Of a stretch of DNA of 64,000 bases, positions 6,148 to 53,961 are shown piece by piece; positions within the stretch are counted from its first letter, which is position 1; the number at the start of each line of letters is the position of its first letter. A model generated the notes under the pieces. It did no database searches. It saw nothing but the letters and a program-made list of their open reading frames with translations, and was not told the DNA's origin. Origin of the DNA: a virus; IMG/VR virus record IMGVR_UViG_3300021594_000960, positions 1 to 64,000 of that record, one strand, 5' to 3'. The position numbers and the translations under genes were made by a program.

Positions 6148-7587
6148 CTACTGTGAAGAATGGGACAGGTTAACATCACCCAAAACACAATATTTGATGT
6201 TTTGAGTTAGACTTGTTGTAACAAAATTGAGTGTAAATGATGTTACAGGACTAATAGTTCCAAAATTATTTTTATTAATCAAATCGTAATTTGAAGATGT
6301 AAACCAAAGTACTTCTGTAATTGGCATAAACCCTGTTATGTGTGAGGCGATTAAGTAAGCATCCCCAAAATCTAAAGTCCCGTTTTTATTTACATCAGAT
6401 GCTTTCCATTGTTTTGTACCCGTTAGAATCAAACCTGTTGGTGTTACAGGTGGTGTAGAAATGTTTTTTGTTTCGTCAAAAACAAGATTGAAATCTTGAG
6501 ATGTAACACCAATAACGGGGAACGACGGAACTAACTTGTATGTTGAGTTTTGAAAAGGAACACTGAAGGTGAAAAATCCACTTGATGTTACGGTCTTGGT
6601 TTCGATAAAGTTGTCCACACCATTAACAACTCTAAATAAAGAAATTGATGGATATGATGATAATGTTGGAACTGATATTGTTCCTGAAATTGACCCTAAA
6701 GATACTTGGTTAGTTACGTTAGCACTATAAAAATCAGTGAATGTTTGTTGTTCAGGGTTTGTCCATGTACCAAACTCTATTACATAGGGATTAGACCAAT
6801 TTACGTTACCTGGTAAGTCGTTCCAACAACTACCACCACCCCATTTCGTAACGGCAAAATCTTCATCACCTGAATTGTTTGGTTCACCATTACACCAGTT
6901 ATTATATTGGCCTGCAATATTTCCTGCAGTTTGACCGTTTTGGGTTTTAATCAATGTACCATTTTCAGGACCAGCATCTACTCTCCAAAAACCTTCTTGA
7001 GCTCTATCCGTAAGTGCAAACCAAATATTACTTTGTGGTACATTTGATATAATAAATGCTTCCTCGTTGGCTGAAGTTATTGTTACAAGATATCCTGTTT
7101 GTCCTTTGAATGTTTGTGCAACTGAAAGTGCTTTTGCATTATCATATGTTGCTGTTGTAGATATTGGCCTATAGAAGTGGCCATTTATTGGATTATAGTA
7201 ATATCCTACGGGGTTTACTGTTGCAGATACGGATATCTGAACATTACCCAGTGTTCCACCTGTATTAACCTTCAGAGAGGCTAAAGCGTTATTGATATTT
7301 GCCATGGTACCAGTAAATGCTATACGAGTAATGTTATTCCACGTATTATACCCTGTCGCAAAGGAAAGTCCTGAGGTTGTTGTGAGACTAAAAGTAGTAC
7401 CAGCGGGAGGATTAACAAATCCAACCGACGCCAGTAATGTTGTTGATGAGTTGAATCCGTTTAATACAAACCCACTTCCGTCCTGATTTGATGTATTAAA
7501 TTGATATATCCTTGATGGTGGAGAAGTTATACTTTGTCCAAACAAAAATAACGGAAAAAAAAATAATATTAGTATTAGATACCTCAT
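6148..7587 (-). CDS. secreted protein with C-type lectin-like domain and dockerin-like motif
   Basis: signal peptide; GYLVTITSANE, WCNGEPNN, WNDL (CTLD-like); SDVNKNGTLDFGDA EF-hand-like motif. Confidence 0.7.
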   Translation of the reverse strand: MRYLILILFFFPLFLFGQSITSPPSRIYQFNTSNQDGSGFVLNGFNSSTTLLASVGFVNPPAGTTFSLTTTSGLSFATGYNTWNNITRIAFTGTMANINNALASLKVNTGGTLGNVQISVSATVNPVGYYYNPINGHFYRPISTTATYDNAKALSVAQTFKGQTGYLVTITSANEEAFIISNVPQSNIWFALTDRAQEGFWRVDAGPENGTLIKTQNGQTAGNIAGQYNNWCNGEPNNSGDEDFAVTKWGGGSCWNDLPGNVNWSNPYVIEFGTWTNPEQQTFTDFYSANVTNQVSLGSISGTISVPTLSSYPSISLFRVVNGVDNFIETKTVTSSGFFTFSVPFQNSTYKLVPSFPVIGVTSQDFNLVFDETKNISTPPVTPTGLILTGTKQWKASDVNKNGTLDFGDAYLIASHITGFMPITEVLWFTSSNYDLINKNNFGTISPVTSFTLNFVTTSLTQNIKYCVLGDVNLSHSSQ

Positions 7588-8960
7588 AAATTAATTTTAC
7601 TACCGATTAAGAAAAACGAAAGAATTGGAAAATCAGGATTGGTACTCAAATTCGCCTTATAGTTCACGTTTACCTTAAATCTTCTTGTTAATTGATAATC
7701 AAAACCCGAACCTAAAAATCCGCTAAATGTTCTATCACCTACGGTTACTTTATCAAAAGATGAGTAAACAAGAGGAGTAGAAATTATATAAATTTCGGGA
7801 GATATTGTTAATTTTTTTCCTGACCTGAATGGTTTTGTATAAAAAGCGGTTATTGATGGACTTATGAATAGATTTTTTTCGTCGGTAACTTTTGTAATCA
7901 TGCCGCTTAAGTTCATTCCTGTAATACCCCACTTCCCTGCGTTTAGGATTGCACTGTAACCCACAAATCCCATGTAATTTCCGTAGCTATATAATGCAGT
8001 GGCATTGATATTATGAACCCATTTCAGTTTACCGTTGTTACTGAAGTGAATCTTGGTATAACGTCCATTCAGTGCAAATTGTTTTAGATTGAACCAAATC
8101 ATAGATGTTACACCCCAACTTGCAGTCCCCGTCATTGAAGTTTGAGACATTCCGACGTTGATAATTCCCGTAAATGATTTATCTAGATTCTGTGCACTTG
8201 TTAAATCTGAAGATACAACCACAGGATTATTCCTTGTTGACTTTGAATTACCCCCCTTTTCATTTCTGGCGTCAACGTTCATTTGTGTTGTTGTTGCTAC
8301 TTCAGAAGTTTCAGAGTTTTTATCTTTTGAATCAGATGAATTATTTGTTTGTTGAGAGTTTTGAAACCCTGTTTGATTAGATGAAGATGAGCTACTGACG
8401 CCGCCACCGACAGGATTATTATTGTTTTGAGAACTTTGAGAATTGTTTTGATTGCCTCCACCAGGTCCGTTAGTAGTCCCACCGCTCCCAACACTACCAC
8501 TATTAGAAGTGGAACCGCCATTAGGATTATTACGATTTCCATTTTTTAATTTATTTTTTGAGTTATCTGAAGATTTTGAGTTCTCTATAACCAAATTTCC
8601 TGCAGTTTCTGAAGCAATTGCACCTGCAATACTCGAAACCACATTACCTATTACTTGAGCCGTTATTTGATTTCTGATAACAGTTGTTGATTGAACAGAA
8701 CAAGGAGAAATTTTTCTGTAATCAGAATATAACTGATTAATCCAATTGGCAAATTCACCACTAGCTACATCTGCAGCGGTGAATGTTCTTGATTGACCAT
8801 AAAAATATATTACAGTACCCCCTTGAATAGGTATTGTAAATGTGGTTACAGATTTTGTGCAAGGGTCAACAAAAGATGTGGTCATAGTTTGACCATCAAC
8901 TTTCAAGCTGAGAAATAAGATAAAGAATATACTTAAAAAAGTTCTTAATCTTTTGCACAT
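7584..8960 (-). CDS. secreted protein with S/N/G-rich linker and C-terminal beta-barrel-like domain
   Basis: signal peptide; alternating hydrophobic strands ending in GSKINL. Confidence 0.6.
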   Translation of the reverse strand: MCKRLRTFLSIFFILFLSLKVDGQTMTTSFVDPCTKSVTTFTIPIQGGTVIYFYGQSRTFTAADVASGEFANWINQLYSDYRKISPCSVQSTTVIRNQITAQVIGNVVSSIAGAIASETAGNLVIENSKSSDNSKNKLKNGNRNNPNGGSTSNSGSVGSGGTTNGPGGGNQNNSQSSQNNNNPVGGGVSSSSSSNQTGFQNSQQTNNSSDSKDKNSETSEVATTTQMNVDARNEKGGNSKSTRNNPVVVSSDLTSAQNLDKSFTGIINVGMSQTSMTGTASWGVTSMIWFNLKQFALNGRYTKIHFSNNGKLKWVHNINATALYSYGNYMGFVGYSAILNAGKWGITGMNLSGMITKVTDEKNLFISPSITAFYTKPFRSGKKLTISPEIYIISTPLVYSSFDKVTVGDRTFSGFLGSGFDYQLTRRFKVNVNYKANLSTNPDFPILSFFLIGSKINL

Positions 8961-36889: not shown

Positions 36890-37162
36890 ATGCCAAACAT
36901 AGATTTAGATATAGAAGTATATGAGTTTGTCCGAGCTTGCTCTAAAAGAGACATCAAAGAATTGATTAAAGAGTTGGTAGATGAGGGACATCTTCCCAAA
37001 GACTTGTATTTTAAAAATGGTGAATTAAAAAAAGAAATGAATAGAAAACTCTCAAGTGAAATTGACTTTGAGGAAAAATTAGATAAACTTAAAACGAAAT
37101 ACTTTTCTTTGAATAAAGATGAAGAAGATTCTTTGGAAAAGATATTTAAGAAACATTTATAA
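36890..37162 (+). CDS. hypothetical protein
   Basis: 90 aa; TAACTTTG at 36866-36873. Confidence 0.65.
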   Translation: MPNIDLDIEVYEFVRACSKRDIKELIKELVDEGHLPKDLYFKNGELKKEMNRKLSSEIDFEEKLDKLKTKYFSLNKDEEDSLEKIFKKHL

Positions 37163-37184
37163 ACTGGTATATATTTATAGAAAT

Positions 37185-37280
37185 ATGAAAACTTTGAATC
37201 TAAATACGAGAACAAATGCGACAACACCGAATGGTGATGCAGGTGGATTATGCTTAGGTTCAGAGGCAAGTGGTTGGTAA
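37185..37280 (+). CDS. leader peptide 1 (MKTLNLNTRTNATTPNGDAGGLCLGSEASGW)
   Basis: 31-codon ORF directly before a terminator and the tRNA block; contains anti-terminator segment 37256-37263. Confidence 0.7.
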   Translation: MKTLNLNTRTNATTPNGDAGGLCLGSEASGW

Positions 37281-37336
37281 TTAAAAACAAAGCCAATAAA
37301 AAACCCTGAACCTTGAAAGTTCGGGGTTTTTTTTTT
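37256..37336 (+). promoter_or_regulatory. attenuator 1 (terminator / anti-terminator)
   Basis: terminator AAACCCTGAAC(37301-11)/GTTCGGGGTTT(37319-29) plus T10; AGGTTCAG(37256-63) is complementary to CTGAACCT(37306-13). Confidence 0.7.
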
Positions 37337-37342
37337 GAATAT

Positions 37343-37415
37343 AGAGTAGTTGACCAATAGGTAGGTCCCTTGCTTTGGGAGCAAGTGTGTGCAGGTTCGA
37401 CCCCTGTCTACTCTA
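37343..37415 (+). tRNA. tRNA-Pro(UGG)
   Basis: AGAGTAG/CTACTCT acceptor; CTTGC-TTTGGGA-GCAAG; GGTTCGA T-loop. Confidence 0.9.
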
Positions 37416-37429
37416 CTTAATTTTAAAAA

Positions 37430-37514
37430 TGCTTCGTTGCCGTAGTGGCCGAACGGTCCAGACTGTTAATCTGGTGTGTAAAAACCATCGTAGGTTCGAA
37501 TCCTACCGAAGCAG
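37430..37514 (+). tRNA. tRNA-Asn(GUU) with long variable region
   Basis: TGCTTCG/CGAAGCA acceptor; CCAGA-CTGTTAA-TCTGG; 15-nt variable region. Confidence 0.85.
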
Positions 37515-37561
37515 CTTTTTTTGAACTCAACAATACTTATAATTAACAACATTTGTTAATC

Positions 37562-38101
37562 ATGAGTAAGTATTGCGAAAAAATTTTAGAATTGAGGAAA
37601 AATGGAATGACGTACAAAGAAATTTCCAATGAATTGAATTGTGCGTTATCCACAGTCTCTTATCATTGTAAACTTCATAAATTGGGGGGCTCAGATGGTA
37701 GGTTGACCGAAGAAGAAAAAATGAGACTACAGAAACTTTATGACCAATTTGGTTCAATAAAAAAAGTATCTGAAATCACCAAAAATTCTTCGGAAACAAT
37801 TCTCAAGTATGTGAAAACAAAAAGGAAGAATAAAAAATTAACCGGTTCTGAATCTGTAATTTTATGGAGAAAAAGAACAAAATTGAAATTGATAGAGTAC
37901 AAGGGAGGAAAATGTGAGATTTGTGGTTATGATAGATGTGTGAGAGCTTTACAGTTTCATCATAAAAATCCTGAAACAAAAGATTTTTCTATTTCAGGAA
38001 AAAGTCATAGTTTTGTTAAACTGAAATCGGAAGTTGATAAATGTATATTAGTTTGCTCAAATTGCCATTCAGAAATACATGACGGAATGATTGAAATTTA
38101 G
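37562..38101 (+). CDS. HTH plus HNH endonuclease (homing-endonuclease-like) within the tRNA array
   Basis: N-terminal HTH (GMTYKEISNEL..ALSTVSYH); YKGGKCEICGY...LQFHH...KCILVCSNCHSEIH. Confidence 0.85.
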   Translation: MSKYCEKILELRKNGMTYKEISNELNCALSTVSYHCKLHKLGGSDGRLTEEEKMRLQKLYDQFGSIKKVSEITKNSSETILKYVKTKRKNKKLTGSESVILWRKRTKLKLIEYKGGKCEICGYDRCVRALQFHHKNPETKDFSISGKSHSFVKLKSEVDKCILVCSNCHSEIHDGMIEI

Positions 38102-38171
38102 GTCTTATAGTTAATCGGTATAATATCGGCTTGTCGCGCCGAGGTGCGGGGTTCGATTCCCCGTGGGACCG
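38101..38171 (+). tRNA. tRNA-Asp(GUC)
   Basis: GGTCTTA/TGGGACC; TCGGC-TTGTCGC-GCCGA. Confidence 0.9.
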
Positions 38172-38224
38172 CTGATAGGGTTTGTAGGTTGTAAAACACA
38201 TTATTGTGTACCCGTATTCAAATT

Positions 38225-38297
38225 GCCTCCTTAGCTCAGCAGGTAGAGCAACTGATTTGTAATCAGTAGGTCGTTGGTTCGATTCCGACAGGAGGCT
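38225..38297 (+). tRNA. tRNA-Thr(UGU)
   Basis: GCCTCCT/AGGAGGC; ACTGA-TTTGTAA-TCAGT. Confidence 0.95.
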
Positions 38298-38312
38298 CTA
38301 AAATTTTAATTT

Positions 38313-38546
38313 ATGCAAGTTTTTTGGACTTATTATTTGATTTGTTTTGCCTATTGTCTTTTCATGTCTGTTAGAAGATGGAATAGAGATGCAATGGCTG
38401 GTGGTCTTGGTATCTCACCTGGTTTGGATACTTTGGGACTTTTAATTATGTGTTGGATTTTAGCTCCTGTGGATATATTTCTCACATGGGTAAGAGTGTA
38501 TAAAGAAGCTGAAGAAGCAAGACGAAATAATACAAAAGTATTCTAA
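38313..38546 (+). CDS. small membrane protein
   Basis: two hydrophobic segments. Confidence 0.6.
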   Translation: MQVFWTYYLICFAYCLFMSVRRWNRDAMAGGLGISPGLDTLGLLIMCWILAPVDIFLTWVRVYKEAEEARRNNTKVF

Positions 38547-39148
38547 TGACGTACTCGGACGAATTGAAAGTTTGTTGGTATACACCACAAAGAACCGCCA
38601 CAAGGACAACACATGTTCTACTCAATGCCATGGGTTTTGTGGGTTTAGGAGCGCACTTTTTTAATTTTCCAGAATCAAAAAAAGATTATTTTTTAATTTC
38701 TAATATTAGAAATCCGTACACGAGAGTTGTTTCTTTGTTTTCTTTGTATTCGATTCATAAAAATGATTTCAATTTGAATTTTGAAAAATGGTGTGAATAT
38801 GCCCTAACAGATAAAAAGTTTGACGGTGATTATCAACTTAGGTATGAGAAAAAAATATTAAGTTTGAATAAAAAATTCGATAAGTTTATAAGAGTAGAAA
38901 AATTGGACGAAGATTTAAAATCTTTAGGTTTTATCAATTTTGAGGAACCAAAAATTCAAGATATTTGGAAAAATAACATCATGAATAATAGGTACACATA
39001 TGAATTCAAAAATATTGAAAATACCACAAGGACACATTGGTCTGATTTCTACACAGAAAAACTAGCTGACTTCGTTTACGAAAACTTAAAGGAACAATTT
39101 GATTTATTTGGTTACGAAAGAAACTCTTGGAAAAATGGCACATCCTAA
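38546..39148 (+). CDS. sulfotransferase family 2-like protein
   Basis: PQRTATRT (5'-PSB-like), IRNPYTRVVS (3'-PB), FDLFGY. Confidence 0.7.
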   Translation: MTYSDELKVCWYTPQRTATRTTHVLLNAMGFVGLGAHFFNFPESKKDYFLISNIRNPYTRVVSLFSLYSIHKNDFNLNFEKWCEYALTDKKFDGDYQLRYEKKILSLNKKFDKFIRVEKLDEDLKSLGFINFEEPKIQDIWKNNIMNNRYTYEFKNIENTTRTHWSDFYTEKLADFVYENLKEQFDLFGYERNSWKNGTS

Positions 39149-39488
39149 TTTACATGCAAAAAGTTCGGCAAAGAAGTTTGGAGGTAAACCCGAAGATTAT
39201 ATTCATCTACATGAATGGTTAGATGAAACCAAAGGTTGGTTTGGTGATTCTTTACATCGTATGTTTAGACACCATTCAGAAGGTATTTTCGAAATGGAAA
39301 AAAGGTTTGGAAAAGAGTTCAAAAACAGCGATGGTAAAACGGTTTATACTAGGTATGTTGGAGAACAACATGTGAAGGAGGATTGTAATAATTATATCCC
39401 ATCAGCCAAAGAATGGGTAAATAATATAACAAGTAACACACGACCAAGTTGGATGATTAAAACAATAAAATTAGAGTTTGAAGACTGA
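39135..39488 (+). CDS. DUF6915-like protein
   Basis: MAHPNLHAKSSAKKFGG...HRMFRHHSEGIF...GEQHVKED. Confidence 0.7.
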   Translation: MAHPNLHAKSSAKKFGGKPEDYIHLHEWLDETKGWFGDSLHRMFRHHSEGIFEMEKRFGKEFKNSDGKTVYTRYVGEQHVKEDCNNYIPSAKEWVNNITSNTRPSWMIKTIKLEFED

Positions 39489-39501
39489 TATTTATAACAT
39501 T

Positions 39502-40212
39502 ATGAGCAAAATACTAACATCAGAAGAAAAAAAATACTTACAGAGAATTTGTAGATACTTGGGTTCATTAGGAATGAACCATGGTAGTATTGATTTCGAA
39601 ATGGAATATGGTGAATTTGATACTAATGACTATAATTGGAACCGTATTACTCATTTCTCTAACAATTATACTGCGGAAATTCCTGACGGATTAAAAGAAA
39701 TCTGTAAAAAACTGCTCAAGTATGTTGAAGAAAACGATTTAATTAATAATCCAGATGTCGAAAATTTAAACTGGGAACGAATTGAAATCGATGTTGATTG
39801 TGACGAGTCAACAATCTCTGTTGTTCATGATTATAATTACTTCGAAGCTAGTGATACTGAGTCAGTCACAAGAAGTTTGGAAGAAGATGGTGACGATGAA
39901 AGCTTAATGGAAGTGTTTGATGTTTTGGAAAATGATGATGAAATTGATGAAAGAGTTCTAAGAATTGATTATAACGGTAGTGGTGATAGCGGATACTTAG
40001 AAGACGCCTTTGATAATATAGGGGTCGATGTGCCAGCACAAGTTCAAGATTACTGTTATGGTATTTTAGAAAGTAATTTTGGTGGTTGGGAAATTAACGA
40101 AGGCTCACAAGGATATTTTGAAATTGATTTAGATAGAAAAGAAATTACTCTCTATCACACATCCAATCTTGATGAAACAGGAAGAGATACTGTTTTTGAA
40201 GAAGACTTCTAA
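39502..40212 (+). CDS. acidic protein (DUF6878-like C-terminus)
   Basis: YNGSGDSG...GGWEINEGSQG. Confidence 0.6.
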   Translation: MSKILTSEEKKYLQRICRYLGSLGMNHGSIDFEMEYGEFDTNDYNWNRITHFSNNYTAEIPDGLKEICKKLLKYVEENDLINNPDVENLNWERIEIDVDCDESTISVVHDYNYFEASDTESVTRSLEEDGDDESLMEVFDVLENDDEIDERVLRIDYNGSGDSGYLEDAFDNIGVDVPAQVQDYCYGILESNFGGWEINEGSQGYFEIDLDRKEITLYHTSNLDETGRDTVFEEDF

Positions 40213-40254
40213 ATTATTTGTTTTTTTAATCCAAATCCCTTATTTTTGTATTAT

Positions 40255-40341
40255 ACCTTGGTGGCGAAATCGGTATACGCGCAAGACTTAAAATCTTGTG
40301 GACAGAAAATGTCCGTGTGGGTTCAAGTCCCACCTGAGGTA
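40255..40341 (+). tRNA. tRNA-Leu(UAA)
   Basis: ACCTTGG/CTGAGGT; CAAGA-CTTAAAA-TCTTG; long variable arm; TATTTTTG at 40241-48. Confidence 0.9.
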
Positions 40342-40417
40342 GGCGTAACGGTAGCCGCGTTGGTCTTAGGAACCAATGACTTCGGTCGTGAGAGTTCGAG
40401 TCTCTCTTGGGGTACCA
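40334..40417 (+). tRNA. tRNA-Leu(UAG) lacking its own 5' acceptor strand (fused to the preceding tRNA)
   Basis: TTGGT-CTTAGGA-ACCAA, GAGAG-TTCGAGT-CTCTC, TTGGGGT-A-CCA; the 5' strand position is occupied by the 3' end of tRNA-Leu(UAA). Confidence 0.7.
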
Positions 40418-40426
40418 ATAGAACAT

Positions 40427-41140
40427 ATGTATATTCAAAGTCCATTAGTCCCAACGGGTGTTAATAACATTTATCATTTAGCACCAATCCCTGTATTCAT
40501 GAAAGTCTTTAATGACCATGAATTACATGATGAAGTTTTTCAATTAGGTTTAGATGTCCTGAGTCCCGCTCAGAAAAAAATGGGTCAAGAACTACCTGAG
40601 GTCTATGATGCTCAGAGACAAGAAAAATATGAAGTAAATTATAACCGTCAGGATATGTGGGTTGAACCAACTGAGTACAACCCCATCGGTAGTCGATTTT
40701 GGACCCCGCCAAACGATTTTCTCGATAGACCTGATACTTGTGTACAAATTATAAAAGACAGGTGTAAAAACGGTTATATGGAGTTATTAGACTCCTTAAA
40801 TTTTGTACACAAAAGAAACCCAAAAATAACTGAGTCTTGGATTCAATATTACAACCCCACAGAAGGTAGAGGTCATAACCAACATAATCATTGTCGTTGG
40901 TCTCCTGATGAAGAAACTGTATTGAATTTTGTGGGTGGTTATTATCTTTCAGACGGTAACCCAATAAAAGACCATCCTTACAGTGGTGTTTTTACGTTTC
41001 ACATCAGAGGTATGTCTTATTTCATTCGACCGAAAAAAGGTATGCTCATGATTTGGCCTTACGATATTGTACATTCTGTGAAACCATTTTATGGTGAAAC
41101 ACAGAGATGTGTTATCAATTTCAATATTCAGGACATATAA
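40427..41140 (+). CDS. 2OG-Fe(II) oxygenase-like protein
   Basis: ESWIQ...HNQHNH...PKKGMLMIWP...HSV.P...RCVINFN. Confidence 0.75.
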   Translation: MYIQSPLVPTGVNNIYHLAPIPVFMKVFNDHELHDEVFQLGLDVLSPAQKKMGQELPEVYDAQRQEKYEVNYNRQDMWVEPTEYNPIGSRFWTPPNDFLDRPDTCVQIIKDRCKNGYMELLDSLNFVHKRNPKITESWIQYYNPTEGRGHNQHNHCRWSPDEETVLNFVGGYYLSDGNPIKDHPYSGVFTFHIRGMSYFIRPKKGMLMIWPYDIVHSVKPFYGETQRCVINFNIQDI

Positions 41141-41144
41141 ATTA

Positions 41145-41174
41145 TTTGTTTTTAAAAAACTTTTACTATATTTG
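41145..41174 (+). promoter_or_regulatory. Bacteroidota-type housekeeping promoter (-33 TTTG / -7 TAnnTTTG)
   Basis: TTTG 41145-48 and TATATTTG 41167-74; similar -7 boxes at 36866, 40241 and 55089. Confidence 0.7.
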
Positions 41175-41191
41175 TAGTAATTATAATAACA

Positions 41192-41272
41192 ATGAGAACA
41201 CAGGTGCAACATATTGTCTACAGTCATCAACAAGAGATTTGTTGGATTAAGACACGCCCTGTAGTCTCGTGA
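41192..41272 (+). CDS. leader peptide 2 (MRTQVQHIVYSHQQEICWIKTRPVVS)
   Basis: 26-codon ORF between promoter and terminator; anti-terminator segment 41259-41269. Confidence 0.75.
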   Translation: MRTQVQHIVYSHQQEICWIKTRPVVS

Positions 41273-41366
41273 GAAGCCTATAATTCCTGAAGAGTTATAT
41301 ATAAGACCTCGAACTACAGAAATGAAGTTCGGGGTTTTTTCTTTTTGGGACTTTTGGTTCTTTGAA
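41259..41366 (+). promoter_or_regulatory. attenuator 2 plus boxA-like element
   Basis: terminator ACCTCGAACT(41306-15)/AGTTCGGGGT(41326-35) plus T-tract; CTGTAGT(C)TCG pairs with CGAACTACAG(41310-19); GTTCTTTGAA at 41357-66. Confidence 0.7.
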
Positions 41367-41476
41367 GTATTGCTGAACATGTTTTGAGTCAATATGGTTT
41401 ATTGATTTCTAAGGGAGGGTATGAAAGAGAAGTGAATTGGGATAGGTTAGAAGAATTAAAAAAAGAAATTAAATAA
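41366..41476 (+). pseudogene. start-less 3' gene fragment (SIAEHVLSQYG...LEELKKEIK)
   Basis: protein-like frame bounded upstream by an in-frame TGA with no ATG. Confidence 0.4.
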
Positions 41477-41490
41477 AGTAAGATTATTAG

Positions 41491-41565
41491 GGTCAGTTGG
41501 TCGAGTGGTTTAGGCGGTAGTCTGCAAAACTATTTACACAGGTTCGATTCCTGTACTGACCTCCA
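41491..41565 (+). tRNA. tRNA-Cys(GCA)
   Basis: GGTCAGT/ACTGACC-T-CCA; GTAGT-CTGCAAA-ACTAT. Confidence 0.93.
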
Positions 41566-41568
41566 CAA

Positions 41569-41641
41569 TGGAATGTAGCTCAGCTGGTAGAGCACTATTC
41601 TGATACGATAGTTGTCGGCGGTTCGAGCCCGCCCATTCCAA
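41569..41641 (+). tRNA. tRNA-Ile(GAU)
   Basis: TGGAATG/CATTCCA; CTATT-CTGATAC-GATAG. Confidence 0.9.
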
Positions 41642-41655
41642 CAAAATAAAATGTT

Positions 41656-42180
41656 ATGAGACGTAAAATCATTTTTATCGATGTAGATGGACCACTGGCA
41701 TGGGGAACATGGGGTGACGGTAGAGTTACGCTCAACGAAGCTTCTAAGACCTTCACAATCCCTTATCCATGGGTTCAGGAGGACTGCCAAGCATTACAAA
41801 AAATTTGTAACGAAACAAATGCGTCTTTGGTTGTAAGTTCAGATTGGAGAAAACACTTTAGTATAATTCAACTCAAAAGAATTTTTCAATACTATGGTGT
41901 AACCGCACCGATTGTAGACATTACAACTCATCAGTACCTTTGGAACAAAATGAGTAGACCATCTATAGAATGGGAGAGAGCCGCAGAAATCACAAAGTGG
42001 GTTAAGGACAACAAAATCACCAATTGGATTTCAATTGATGATATGAAACTTGATGAACAATACAAGTGGTTGAAACCAAGAATTCCAATGTGGAGACACG
42101 TACAGGTAGATGGTGATTGGGGTCACGGCGGAAGACTAAGAGACAAAATTGATGAATGTATAAAAAAATTAGAACGATGA
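41656..42180 (+). CDS. HAD-superfamily phosphatase (Swiss-army-knife RNA-repair type)
   Basis: IIFIDVDG, LVVSSDWR, R..EI..W, WISIDD. Confidence 0.8.
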   Translation: MRRKIIFIDVDGPLAWGTWGDGRVTLNEASKTFTIPYPWVQEDCQALQKICNETNASLVVSSDWRKHFSIIQLKRIFQYYGVTAPIVDITTHQYLWNKMSRPSIEWERAAEITKWVKDNKITNWISIDDMKLDEQYKWLKPRIPMWRHVQVDGDWGHGGRLRDKIDECIKKLER

Positions 42181-42464
42181 AAAAAAGATTATCATTAGAA
42201 CAGAAGAGAGAAAAAATGGTCGTTGATATGATTAATAAAATGTTCGAAATCGCAGGACATTCAGTAACATACGATGATGTTAAAGACCGTAAAGATGATT
42301 GGTATACTCAATGGACTATGACTGTCGAACAAAACGATGAGTGGAAAGATTGGGGTCAGAAATACCTCATCAAAGAACTCAAAATGAATAAGAAGTATGC
42401 TGAAACTCAAATGGGGATGATTTCCTTAATGTGGGGATTAAAGTTTAGTAATTTCAATTTATAA
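42177..42464 (+). CDS. hypothetical phage protein
   Basis: 95 aa; ends LMWGLKF. Confidence 0.65.
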   Translation: MKKRLSLEQKREKMVVDMINKMFEIAGHSVTYDDVKDRKDDWYTQWTMTVEQNDEWKDWGQKYLIKELKMNKKYAETQMGMISLMWGLKFSNFNL

Positions 42465-42480
42465 AGCGTAAATTTGTGAT

Positions 42481-43035
42481 ATGAAAATCAATAGAGCGGA
42501 TTTGTTATGGTTCCTGAGTAACATCCGAAGAAAACAAGAAGGAAAAGAACTTACTGACGAAATGCTAGTTGACCATATGGCACATTATATGGAGGCAAAT
42601 CCGAGATGTGTTGATATGCAAGGTGTTAGTACACCAGGTAGGTTCAGTTATTCTACTGTTGGATATGGTGTATTCAGTTTGATGGGTGAGAAGTATAGAA
42701 TGGGTAGGATTGAAATATTCGACAGAGAAAGTGATAGCGGATATCAAGTGTCTGAGGGAATCTATACAATGCCTTATGAAGCGGCAAGTCAATTTGAAGA
42801 TTTTATCGAATCTTTGGAAACTGACCTACCAATAAACATCGAAATAGGTTCTCATGGATGGTGTGAAGAGGAATGCGCAAAATCTTTGGGTTTTGAAAAC
42901 ACTGAAGCTATGAGAGACCCTGAAAACGTAAAAAAGTATCAAAGAATGAAAAACGATGAATATGCACGTGAACAAGGGTATGAAGATTGGGACGACCTAT
43001 TAGCTAAAAGTAAGTGGACAAAAAAACAAGGATAA
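42481..43035 (+). CDS. hypothetical protein
   Basis: 184 aa. Confidence 0.65.
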   Translation: MKINRADLLWFLSNIRRKQEGKELTDEMLVDHMAHYMEANPRCVDMQGVSTPGRFSYSTVGYGVFSLMGEKYRMGRIEIFDRESDSGYQVSEGIYTMPYEAASQFEDFIESLETDLPINIEIGSHGWCEEECAKSLGFENTEAMRDPENVKKYQRMKNDEYAREQGYEDWDDLLAKSKWTKKQG

Positions 43036-43448
43036 TGAAAGTTGTAATCGTAAGTGGATATTTCAATCCTGTCCATAAAGGACATATTGAATACTTTATC
43101 AAATCAAAAGAACATGGAGACAAACTCTATGTGATTGTGAATAACGATTTTCAACGTGAGTTGAAAGGAAGTAAAAAGTTCCAAGATGAGGACGAGAGAT
43201 TGGTAATTATCGATAGTTTAAAGATGGTAGATAAAACTATACTATCTATCGATAAAGACAGAACGGTTCGTGAGACGTTAAGAATGATTGCCTCTGAGGT
43301 TGAAGAAAACGTAGAGTTGTTTTTTGCAAACGGAGGAGACCAAAATAACGACACAATACCTGAAAAACCAATCTGTGATGAATTGGGTATCAAACTGGTT
43401 GACGGTTTGGGAGACAAGATTCAGTCCTCATCTTGGTTATTAAAATAA
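43035..43448 (+). CDS. cytidylyltransferase-family (HxGH) nucleotidyltransferase
   Basis: VSGYFNPVHKGH, FANGGD, KIQSSSWL. Confidence 0.88.
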   Translation: MKVVIVSGYFNPVHKGHIEYFIKSKEHGDKLYVIVNNDFQRELKGSKKFQDEDERLVIIDSLKMVDKTILSIDKDRTVRETLRMIASEVEENVELFFANGGDQNNDTIPEKPICDELGIKLVDGLGDKIQSSSWLLK

Positions 43449-43454
43449 TAAAAA

Positions 43455-43527
43455 GCGTGCGTAGCTCAATTGGTAGAGTACTAGTCTCCAAAACTAGGAG
43501 TTTCAGGTTCGAGTCCTGACGTGCGTG
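43455..43527 (+). tRNA. tRNA-Trp(CCA)
   Basis: GCGTGCG/CGTGCGT; CTAGT-CTCCAAA-ACTAG. Confidence 0.92.
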
Positions 43528-43529
43528 CA

Positions 43530-43619
43530 AAATGTAAACTTCAGTACCCACACAGTGGTGAGACGGGCTAAGTTAGATACGATTCCTCGGAGCTGGGAGT
43601 AGAATGCTGAAGAACATTT
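43530..43619 (+). ncRNA. candidate multibranch structured RNA
   Basis: closing helices AAATGT/ACATTT and CTTCAGTA/TGCTGAAG with internal hairpins. Confidence 0.45.
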
Positions 43620-43620
43620 A

Positions 43621-43755
43621 TAGGTTGATTGGGGAATGGTGAAACTAATGACTCGAGAGTGTATTTCGGTCAGTTTCATCGGAGTTGGGAGAAATACACC
43701 TGAGTAATGCCAATCGTAAAAGGAGTTGTCCACGCAACCATCTTCTCCTTTCCTT
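43621..43755 (+). ncRNA. candidate double-pseudoknot structured RNA
   Basis: GATTGG/CCAATC, GGTGAAACT/AGTTTCATC, GTGTATTTC/GAAATACAC, AAAGGAG/CTCCTTT, GGTTG/CAACC. Confidence 0.55.
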
Positions 43756-43760
43756 AATTT

Positions 43761-43842
43761 GGGAGTATCGCCTAGTGGCAATGGCAGAAGACTGTAAATC
43801 TTCCCTCTTTCGAGTTCGTTGGTTCGAGTCCAGCTACTCCCA
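43761..43842 (+). tRNA. tRNA-Tyr(GUA)
   Basis: GGGAGTA/TACTCCC; GAAGA-CTGTAAA-TCTTC; long variable arm. Confidence 0.93.
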
Positions 43843-43844
43843 CA

Positions 43845-43906
43845 AAATGATTGAAGTCCTGAGTGGTATCGGGAGGAAGTAACACAACCAAGTGTAACAA
43901 TCATTT
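43845..43906 (+). ncRNA. candidate three-way-junction RNA with kissing loops
   Basis: AAATGATTG/CAATCATTT closing stem; TCCTGA/TCGGGA and ACAC/GTGT hairpins with loops containing TGGT and ACCA. Confidence 0.5.
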
Positions 43907-43908
43907 AT

Positions 43909-43982
43909 GGACCCCTAGCTCAGTAGGTTAGAGCAAATGACTCATAATCATTAGGTCCACGGTTCGAGCCCGTGGGGGTCCA
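43909..43982 (+). tRNA. tRNA with CAU anticodon, probably Ile2 (lysidine type)
   Basis: GGACCCC/GGGGTCC; AATGA-CTCATAA-TCATT; body resembles Ile2 more than fMet. Confidence 0.85.
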
Positions 43983-43984
43983 CA

Positions 43985-44059
43985 AGACAGACACACGCTT
44001 CCCATGGTGTTAAAGTACAAGGATAATGAAGAGAATAATACGTCTCCTTAGGTCTGTCT
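43985..44059 (+). ncRNA. candidate structured RNA
   Basis: AGACAGAC/GTCTGTCT closing stem with internal ACAC/GTGT and AAGGA/TCCTT helices. Confidence 0.45.
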
Positions 44060-44064
44060 GAAAT

Positions 44065-44135
44065 TGTCGTATGGTGTAACGGTAACACAACAGATTTTGG
44101 TTCTGTTTTTCAAGGTTCGAATCCTTGTGCGACAA
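44065..44135 (+). tRNA. tRNA-Gln(UUG)
   Basis: TGTCGTA/TGCGACA; ACAGA-TTTTGGT-TCTGT. Confidence 0.92.
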
Positions 44136-44140
44136 CATAT

Positions 44141-44214
44141 GGTGGACGTAGCTTAGTTGGTAGAGCACTAGCTTGTGGCGCTAGTTGTCGTGGGTTCGAA
44201 TCCCACCGTTCACA
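44141..44214 (+). tRNA. tRNA-His(GUG)
   Basis: G-1 plus GTGGACG/CGTTCAC; CTAGC-TTGTGGC-GCTAG. Confidence 0.9.
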
Positions 44215-44219
44215 CACGA

Positions 44220-44304
44220 GGAGAGTTGCCTGAGTGGTTAAAGGAGCGGTTTACTAAACCGTGGTCGGGTAACTGACCCGCTGGTTCGAATCCAGCACTC
44301 TCCG
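44220..44304 (+). tRNA. tRNA-Ser with ACU anticodon
   Basis: GGAGAGT/ACTCTCC-G; GCGGT-TTACTAA-ACCGT; long variable arm. Confidence 0.88.
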
Positions 44305-44417
44305 CACTTTTTTTAACCTACTAGTTGACGATTTAGAAAACTTGGCGGCTGTTGTTGTAGACACTACTGCTGTTAAGGTAGAAGAAGTTAAATAATATTA
44401 CTTTTTCTTACAAAACT

Positions 44418-44445
44418 AAAAACCCATCTTTCGATGGGTTTTTTT
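44418..44445. terminator. bidirectional terminator closing the tRNA operon
   Basis: AAAAACCCATC-TTTC-GATGGGTTTTT. Confidence 0.8.
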
Positions 44446-53568: not shown

Positions 53569-53961
53569 TGGTGGAGAAGACGGGATTCGAACCCGTGTCT
53601 TGTTCGCGATAACTATAAATGACTACACGTTTATTACAACATTGTTTCTCAATGTTCCGAAATATTAGGTTTGATATTTGTGAGAACCCCACCTACAAAC
53701 AACTTGGTCTCAGAATTATTTTAAACGAGCTCTGACCTGTGACCCGTAAATTGGACTTCTGTTCCTAGGTTAATGTCCTAACCGACCCGAGTAGTTGTGT
53801 CTTAATTAAGCAACAACTGTAGCTTCTTCAGCGATTAAACCGATAGCAGCCATTTTAGCAAAAGTATTGCCGTTTGTGTTTCAAATCAGTTTTTAAGGAG
53901 TTAATTCAGCTCCTACGTGCCACTTATACCTACACACGCCAATCAATGCCATGTCTTCCCC
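53569..53961 (-). ncRNA. ssrA: tmRNA
   Basis: GGGGAAG/CTTCTCC-A-CCA acceptor with G3-U70, GGTTCGAATCC T-arm, 393 nt, tag frame 53871-53806 GNTFAKMAAIGLIAEEATVVA*. Confidence 0.93.

Follow-up and report, generated by a model that had tools for sequence, protein, structure and literature searches.

Among the enterobacterial multivalent attenuators, the thr leader carries Thr and Ile codons and the ilvGMEDA leader carries Ile, Leu, and Val codons, and a ribosome stalled on such a leader brings about read-through. The pheM leader attenuator controls the pheST operon, encoding Phe-tRNA synthetase, and T-boxes, found mostly in Firmicutes, bind uncharged transfer RNA (tRNA) directly and need neither a ribosome nor an open reading frame (ORF). 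In the accessible text of the sources, leader-peptide attenuation is inferred in flavobacteria (PMC9723704), and the trn operon of Anabaena sp. PCC 7120 is a stress-induced long tRNA array (PMC8421152) with the repressor TrcR (PMC10272220). The regulation of phage tRNA genes is largely unaddressed in the searchable literature, where the debate is why phages carry them. Here we describe two units in the tRNA array of the viral record IMGVR_UViG_3300021594_000960, each a short leader ORF and an intrinsic terminator ahead of a block of tRNA genes. These are probably ribosome-mediated (leader-peptide) attenuators, in which transcription of each tRNA block would be set by the decoding speed of its own codons.

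The window, by which we mean the whole stretch of DNA analyzed, is a 64-kb part of one contig of 73,155 bp, with a G+C content of 34.6% and numerous genes of phage type. Its + strand carries 14 tRNA genes between 37343 and 44305. Block 1 holds Pro, Asn, Asp, Thr, Leu(TAA), and Leu(TAG) in that order, and block 2 holds Cys, Ile(GAT), Trp, Tyr, CAT, Gln, His, and Ser(ACT), the CAT tRNA being Met by ARAGORN. ARAGORN and Rfam agree on these lists, which had been given in the same order by a first-pass annotation made from the letters alone, where the CAT tRNA is named Ile2. That annotation had also described a short ORF and an intrinsic terminator before each block and a 3′ arm common to both terminators, and all of these are present in the sequence: both leader ORFs end 21–32 nucleotides (nt) ahead of a strong hairpin with a T-run (Table 1). 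Terminator 2 was missed by the terminator scan because its loop exceeds the size the scan permits. The tRNA-Pro gene starts 7 nt past the T-run of terminator 1; this gap leaves no room for a promoter, so tRNA-Pro should be makeable only by read-through. A longer leader 1, read from the ATG at 37119 (53 codons), was rejected, since this ATG falls within the upstream gene and, unlike the one at 37185, shows no conservation.

The codons of each leader match the tRNAs of the block behind it. Matches were scored under strict wobble rules, with the expectation taken from the contig's own codon usage. Within codons 2–20, leader 1 has 12 of 19 codons matching its own block (4.6 expected, P=4e-4) with 6/6 block tRNAs represented, and leader 2 has 14 of 19 (4.4 expected, P=5e-6) with 7/8 represented; cross-block matches in the same codons come to 1/19 for either leader. 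Taken whole, leader 1 matches its own block at 14/30 codons (7.3 expected, P=0.0056) and the other block at 4/30, and leader 2 matches its own at 14/25 (5.8 expected, P=0.0003) and the other at 2/25. The best of 263 other ATG-initiated ORFs of 20–40 codons in the same contig reached 11/19. One of the 14 matches of leader 2 is an AGA codon credited to tRNA-Ser(ACT) by a rule under which A34 reads A; leaving it out lowers the counts to 13/19 and 13/25. The core counts of the first-pass annotation, 13 of 16 residues in each leader (residues 3–18 and 4–19) with no cross-match between the cores, are correct by the translations. The core residues that do not match (Arg, Ala, and Gly; Val, Val, and Glu) correspond to tRNAs present in the corresponding blocks of relatives, and the codon inventory of the window's leaders reads as partly out of date in this genome.

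Relatives were collected through the oxygenase gene that lies between the two blocks (40 viral loci) and through the terminator pattern (117 more). About half of the 40 oxygenase-found loci have syntenic tRNA arrays, fuller than that of the window, and both leaders are kept at syntenic sites in these uncultured relatives. The leader ORFs proved to be conserved, with ATG and frame kept in 9/9 aligned sequences for leader 1 and in 8/8 for leader 2, and with indels that are multiples of three. Many relatives carry a third unit with its own terminator ahead of a Leu-Arg-Leu block. Its leader, leader 1b, has 22 codons, 8 of them Leu and 4 Arg, and matches its own block at 10/21 codons (2.1 expected, P<=0.0001); in genomes that lack this unit, the window included, leader 1 is richer in Leu and Arg codons. 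The loci found by terminator pattern carry many further leader types. In one, a leader with 7 Ser, 3 Lys, 3 Phe, 2 His, and 1 Trp is followed by an array of Trp, His, Phe, Lys, and Ser tRNAs, and another leader has Cys-Cys-Tyr at the place of the Cys-Trp-Tyr found in its relatives, with no tRNA-Trp in the array behind it. Searches of 50,697 phage records with both leader regions (megablast/blastn) and with the oxygenase (tblastn) returned tRNA matches only or nothing, so this homologous leader family is known solely from uncultured contigs.

Across the collected set, candidate leaders were chosen by a rule blind to composition: an ORF of 15–40 codons ending 5–50 nt before a terminator, with a tRNA within 400 nt. 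From 158 sequences this gave 163 terminator-tRNA junctions and 65 unique upstream ORFs, of which 4 were dropped for a block of fewer than two tRNAs, leaving 49 unique leader/block pairs and 12 controls that are the C-termini of long ORFs. The leaders matched their own blocks at 0.483 against 0.280 expected, and the controls at 0.086 against 0.077. When block labels were permuted, none of 10,000 permutations reached the observed excess, either overall or within families; with the six family representatives alone, 195 of 10,000 did. Block tRNAs were represented in the leader at 0.90, compared with 0.59 for random peptides, and a cognate codon was present in 0.91 of cases with the tRNA in the block and in 0.54 of those without. 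A Tyr codon, for example, occurs in 21/21 leaders with tRNA-Tyr in the block and in 4/28 without it. By these measures, codon content tracks the tRNAs of the leader's own block and avoids those of other blocks. The match in codons 2–20 is 0.588, and from codon 21 to the end it is 0.279, equal to the background of 0.280; an enrichment lying wholly in codons 2–20 fits the geometry of a stall that would free region 2 of the leader RNA, described below. Terminators before tRNA-Ile in relatives and before tRNA-Leu in the L005 group were considered as attenuators and rejected, as they follow ORFs of 149–243 codons and show no codon match; these were used as controls. Nearly all leaders begin with Met, then Lys, Arg, or Asn, and then Thr, irrespective of the downstream block, and a codon read by tRNA-Thr(TGT) is found in 88% of leaders whose block is without that tRNA. 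This may be a requirement of start context or of region 1.

The same leader/block logic recurs in leaders that are not homologous to those of the window. In Cellulophaga phage phi4:1, a cultured phage of a different genus, three units with leaders unrelated in sequence, at about 87065-87189, 88025-88163, and 89771-89920 of the record, divide an array of 22 tRNAs into three blocks. The first matches its own block at 11/19 codons (4.0 expected, P=0.0005; 7/7 tRNAs represented), the second at 11/19 (6.8 expected, P=0.04; 7/10 represented), and the third at 10/19 (3.6 expected, P=0.0009; 5/5 represented), and all off-diagonal leader/block comparisons fall below expectation. Significant anti-terminators were found in 2/3 of these units. 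In two phi4:1 units, as for leader 1 in relatives of the window, the end of the promoter box lies five bases ahead of the ATG, a spacing that predicts leaderless messages. The same 32-nt promoter sequence stands before 2/3 of the phi4:1 leaders (7030-7061 and 7972-8003 of locus L158, from NC_021788.1), and the first of the two copies has this five-base spacing. Inside the phi4:1 tRNA array are the annotated hypothetical genes gp075 (L158 7990-8109) and gp076 (L158 10118-10219); the middle leader lies within gp075, whose annotated start is TTG, and the first and third leaders are unannotated. The uncultured 635-kb phage LR745206.1 has two units, with own-block matches of 8/19 (2.7 expected) and 4/19 (0.8 expected), one of its leaders having 9 Ser and 2 Arg codons ahead of Arg and Ser tRNAs. 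Coliphage T5, with 23 tRNAs on one strand, has no such unit.

Both window leaders can form the alternative structures of a classical attenuator, with region 1 in the 5′ part of the ORF, region 2 in its 3′ part, and regions 3 and 4 in the arms of the terminator. In the absence of a ribosome, each leader folds into a long 1:2 hairpin followed by the terminator (folding z = -3.6 for leader 1 and -3.2 for leader 2). The 1:2, 2:3, and 3:4 pairings are mutually exclusive in both units, the 1:2 helices having 16 and 13 pairs. In constrained folds of leader 1 with region 1 masked and region 4 unmade, 37256-37266 pairs with 37304-37313 (10 pairs), and with the 5′ part of leader 2 masked and region 4 unmade, 41259-41269 pairs with 41310-41319 (10 pairs). 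Across the test set, anti-terminator complementarity had a mean z of -1.76 in leaders, with 21/49 at P<0.05, and of -0.42 in controls, with 0/12. In leaders 1 and 1b the GTTCAG of region 2 faces CTGAAC, and in leader 2 of the relatives a GTTCGG faces CCGAAC, which amounts to one two-sided change between paralogous units. The window's leader stop codons both lie no more than 12 nt from region 2.

The full Bacteroidota-type promoter motif has 15 matches in the window, compared with 5.8 expected, and 0/100 shuffles reached 15; the motif definition and position of the flavobacterial -7 box follow the accessible text of PMC9723704. One match precedes leader 2. The possible -7 box of leader 1 has no -33 TTTG at the usual spacing and does not count among the full-motif matches. 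A further match lies just before the tRNA-Leu genes, so these genes would not be gated by leader 1 alone.

Table 1. Features of the tRNA array, in window coordinates. Roles in attenuation and promoter assignments are predictions.
Feature	Position	Strand	Details
Possible sigma-A -7 box of leader 1	37170-37177	+	7/8 positions of TAnnTTTG; transcription start uncertain
Leader ORF 1	37185-37280	+	31 codons and stop; putative regulatory codons 2-20
Leader 1, region 1	37192-37209	+	Minimum free energy fold pairs it with 37248-37265 (16 pairs)
Leader 1, region 2 (putative anti-terminator strand)	37248-37266	+	Contains GTTCAG, invariant in the alignment of relatives
Putative attenuator terminator 1	37298-37336	+	5′ arm 37298-37311 (region 3), 3′ arm 37319-37332 (region 4), T-run; -14.4 kcal/mol
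Block 1, first part	37343-38298	+	Pro(TGG) 37343-37416; Asn(GTT) 37430-37515; helix-turn-helix (HTH)/HNH gene 37562-38101; Asp(GTC) 38101-38172; Thr(TGT) 38225-38298
Protein genes within block 1	38313-40212	+	Small ORF, sulfotransferase-like gene, DUF6915, DUF6878
Bacteroidota-type promoter motif before tRNA-Leu	40217-40248	+	Full motif; predicted start ~40253, about the first base of tRNA-Leu
tRNA-Leu pair	40254-40417	+	Leu(TAA) 40254-40342; overlapping Leu(TAG) 40332-40417, possibly damaged
2-oxoglutarate (2OG)-Fe(II) oxygenase-like gene	40427-41140	+	Between the blocks; anchor for finding relatives
Leader 2 promoter (predicted)	41145-41174	+	TTTG, 18 nt, TAnnTTTG; predicted start ~41179, 13 nt before ATG; conserved in alignment of relatives
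Leader ORF 2	41192-41272	+	26 codons and stop
Leader 2, region 2	41256-41270	+	Pairs with region 1 (41192-41207) or with 41310-41319; consensus 1:2 hairpin in relatives
Putative attenuator terminator 2	41303-41340	+	Arms 41303-41318 and 41323-41338, T-run; -17.3 kcal/mol
Block 2	41491-44305	+	Cys, Ile(GAT), HAD_SAK_2 gene 41656-42180, two ORFs, cytidylyltransferase-like gene 43035-43448, Trp, Tyr, CAT, Gln, His, Ser(ACT)
Closing terminator of block 2	44418-44443	both directions	Homologous hairpin closes relatives' arrays

The sequences themselves show the anatomy of these units, their conservation, the match in codons with its specificity for the block, and the recurrence of the device in unrelated leaders, and from them we infer leader translation, stalling, read-through, and a physiological trigger. 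In the mechanism we propose, transcription would begin just upstream of the 26–31 codon ORF. A ribosome stalling in codons 2–20 for lack of a charged cognate tRNA would hold region 1 open, and the freed region 2 would pair with the 5′ arm of the terminator, allowing RNA polymerase to continue into the tRNA genes and the protein genes interspersed among them. With quick decoding, the ribosome would reach the stop codon and cover region 2, the terminator would form, and the block would be off; with zero translation, regions 1 and 2 would pair and the terminator would form again. Almost all tRNAs of a block have between one and five codons in its leader, which so would act as an OR gate over 6–14 tRNA species, and the fresh phage tRNAs would shut the block again in a negative feedback loop. 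The central claim of the first-pass annotation, that the leaders gate the matching tRNA sets, thus finds support in silico from conservation, codon tracking, the confinement of the match to codons 2–20, and recurrence in non-homologous leaders. Anticodon nucleases such as PrrC as the trigger are speculation. It is a tentative suggestion, one we hold as possible and no further, that phages of Bacteroidota-type hosts (the 73-kb contig, phi4:1, and the 635-kb phage) might split their tRNA arrays into demand-sensing regulons in which any one missing tRNA fires the gate, as an inducible counter-measure to host tRNA-cleaving defenses or to decay of the host tRNA pool, with leaders rewritten as tRNA genes come and go.

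Several results weigh against leader-peptide attenuation. The 49 pairs are not independent, because most leaders belong to two homologous families. The co-variation of leader codons with downstream tRNAs that the first-pass annotation had put up for testing is borne out by the permutations over those pairs but falls short between sister genomes: over 15 independent pairs, the tRNA differences were concordant in 21 cases, discordant in 12, and tied in 26 (P=0.08 by sign test). Several of these differences probably reflect truncated loci or the way terminator calling placed the block boundaries. The coding signature is modest, with substitutions at codon positions 1/2/3 of 54/61/93 and with 40 of 139 codon differences synonymous, against 22% expected, and 99 non-synonymous. 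The complementarity between the 3′ part of each ORF and the 5′ arm of its terminator, also described by the first-pass annotation, is present as 10 pairs in each leader, but in the window alone it is not beyond that of shuffled sequence (P=0.09 for leader 1 and 0.32 for leader 2). The terminator wins at equilibrium in every masked fold, and the switch must therefore be kinetic. Within the window, leader 1 has Arg, Ala, and Gly codons and leader 2 has Val and Glu codons for which the block has no tRNA, and block 2 has a CAT tRNA, yet leader 2 has no internal ATG or ATA codon. Most codons occur once or twice per leader, fewer than in his or leu leaders, so it is uncertain how well a leader would respond to a mild shortage. 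In the window, as in relatives with leader 1b, promoter-like boxes stand between the terminator and tRNA-Leu, and part of the expression may bypass the gate. In RNA libraries, 6 runs held small shares of the stretch, and in the 4 examined all assembled contigs were 90–99% alike to it and therefore come from relatives; one of them (run X1, depth 20.9) spans ~41274-42515, across terminator 2, and supports no conclusion, as assembled contigs reveal neither starts, ends, nor levels of transcripts and may be DNA carry-over.

Attenuation by leader peptide could also serve a different signal. The same device might respond to amino-acid starvation or to general translation capacity, the block being a general regulon for struggling translation; to a leader, the absence of a tRNA and its lack of charging look alike, the tRNA blocks also contain protein genes, and the Anabaena array is, in the accessible text of PMC8421152, induced by general translational stress. 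A general sensor, however, needs neither block-specific codons nor avoidance of the codons of other blocks, the cross-block matches lie below expectation, and an extra tRNA gives no relief from amino-acid starvation, all of which makes this reading unlikely. The logic could instead be reversed, such that fast translation of the leader opens the terminator and the block is a feed-forward unit. This would suit those relatives in which region 2 lies ~17–27 nt before the stop codon, where a terminating ribosome may cover it incompletely, but the matched codons lie in or just after region 1 and end before region 2, which is the trp/his-type geometry of stalling leading to read-through, and with both stop codons of the window so close to region 2 we regard reversed logic as very improbable.

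Two further explanations dispense with attenuation. If the terminators were ordinary terminators or insulators, the short ORFs would be untranslated and their composition would follow from RNA-structure constraint or chance. Only 23 nt separate the end of the upstream gene from leader 1, so that unit could simply have terminator 1 as its end, and sequence conservation peaks in the hairpin arms; nonetheless the 12 controls, which are real gene ends followed by a terminator and tRNA, show no match, and the match in leaders is codon- and block-specific, recurs in unrelated sequences, and comes with a start and frame that are kept, leaving insulation with a very slight chance of being correct. Slighter still is the chance that the small peptides have a protein function in trans, such as regulation, with an incidental tRNA neighborhood. 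The accessible text on peTrpL describes a trans-acting leader peptide of another bacterium (PMC7298713), but here it is the composition of the peptides that follows the tRNAs, their sequence being poorly conserved, with 99 non-synonymous differences set against 40 synonymous ones.

Protein genes are interspersed in both blocks. Between tRNA-Asn and tRNA-Asp lies a homing-endonuclease-like gene with HTH and HNH domains, the end of which is the first base of tRNA-Asp, and no + strand terminator was predicted among the block 1 protein genes at 38313-40212. The Leu(TAG) gene overlaps Leu(TAA) by 11 nt and alone scores 27.9 bits against an Rfam gathering score of 29, with the acceptor stem not aligned in the match; this sub-gathering score without an aligned acceptor stem suggests that the gene may be damaged. 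In relatives, a tRNA-Arg(TCT) sits between the two Leu genes, so the overlap in the window looks like the scar of a deletion that probably took out tRNA-Arg. In block 2, the HAD_SAK_2 domain is a Pfam match (E=8.8e-20), and no ligase or kinase was found among the block's genes. The first-pass annotation had expected RNA-repair genes to be transcribed with the tRNAs; this link to RNA repair has one Pfam name behind it and is a guess. The tRNA-Ser at 44220-44305 has the anticodon ACT, the tRNA in the same place in the closest relative (L145) has GCT, and the Ser codon of leader 2 is AGT. The 232-nt spacer between tRNA-Trp and tRNA-Tyr (43529-43760) has no Rfam match, the gap is 130–270 nt in relatives, and RNA-library contigs cover the spacer. 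Elsewhere in the window is a phage-borne transfer-messenger RNA (tmRNA) gene (53569-53961, - strand; 83.6 bits in Rfam), and in the distant relatives L028 and L029 a tmRNA directly follows the oxygenase gene.

If the proposed mechanism is true, a sensor read by the ribosome would yield the very tRNAs that it samples, forming a direct feedback loop on decoding capacity, and this would account for arrays cut by terminators. It would also allow the codons that limit a phage in its host to be predicted from sequence alone, and the sensor would be compact and programmable, its input set by the codon list. The cultured pair of Cellulophaga baltica and phi4:1, carrying three units, makes the idea testable at the bench.

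In the literature searched, subscription journals lying outside its coverage, no account of leader-peptide control of tRNA genes was found, in keeping with the first-pass annotation, which knew of no description of this multi-tRNA logic for phage arrays. Papers on phage tRNAs as counter-defense against tRNA-cleaving immunity (PMC10264068, PMC11555353, PMC12409363) give, in their accessible text, a reason for replacing host tRNAs on demand; their topic there is the tRNAs carried and the escape from cleavage, rather than a transcription sensor. The nearest published conditionally expressed tRNA array is that of Anabaena, which is likewise accessory. As far as the accessible text describes it, this array is silent until translation is impaired and is co-regulated with the RNA-repair gene rtcB, but it differs in having an RHH repressor that binds direct repeats over the promoter, at the -10 box and start site, no codon matching, and a location on a cellular megaplasmid, and we compare it as a functional analog only; the accessible text of PMC8421152 contains none of the terms "leader peptide," "attenuat," and "terminator" (0 occurrences of each).

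The units resemble T-boxes in that the state of specific tRNAs would be sensed through a terminator/anti-terminator switch placed before translation-supply genes. Neither the T-box nor the Rfam leader families (His, Thr, Trp, Leu, and others) matched at the gathering score, and cmscan of the whole window gave only 14 tRNA hits and one tmRNA. As in pheM/pheST, leader-peptide attenuation would act on a component of the decoding machinery and not on a biosynthetic pathway, although pheM concerns one amino acid, a synthetase in place of tRNAs, and a cellular gene. The closest likeness is to the thr and ilv leaders, with which the units share a short leader ORF with several kinds of regulatory codon, alternative 1:2, 2:3, and 3:4 hairpins, and an intrinsic terminator. 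Unlike those leaders, they would regulate phage tRNA genes and not biosynthetic enzymes, the tRNA product would act directly on the sensor, and where those leaders have runs of two or three kinds of codon, these include as many as 14 codon families, each present once or a few times. The best reading of these units is thus classical ribosome-mediated attenuation turned to a new target, phage tRNA genes.

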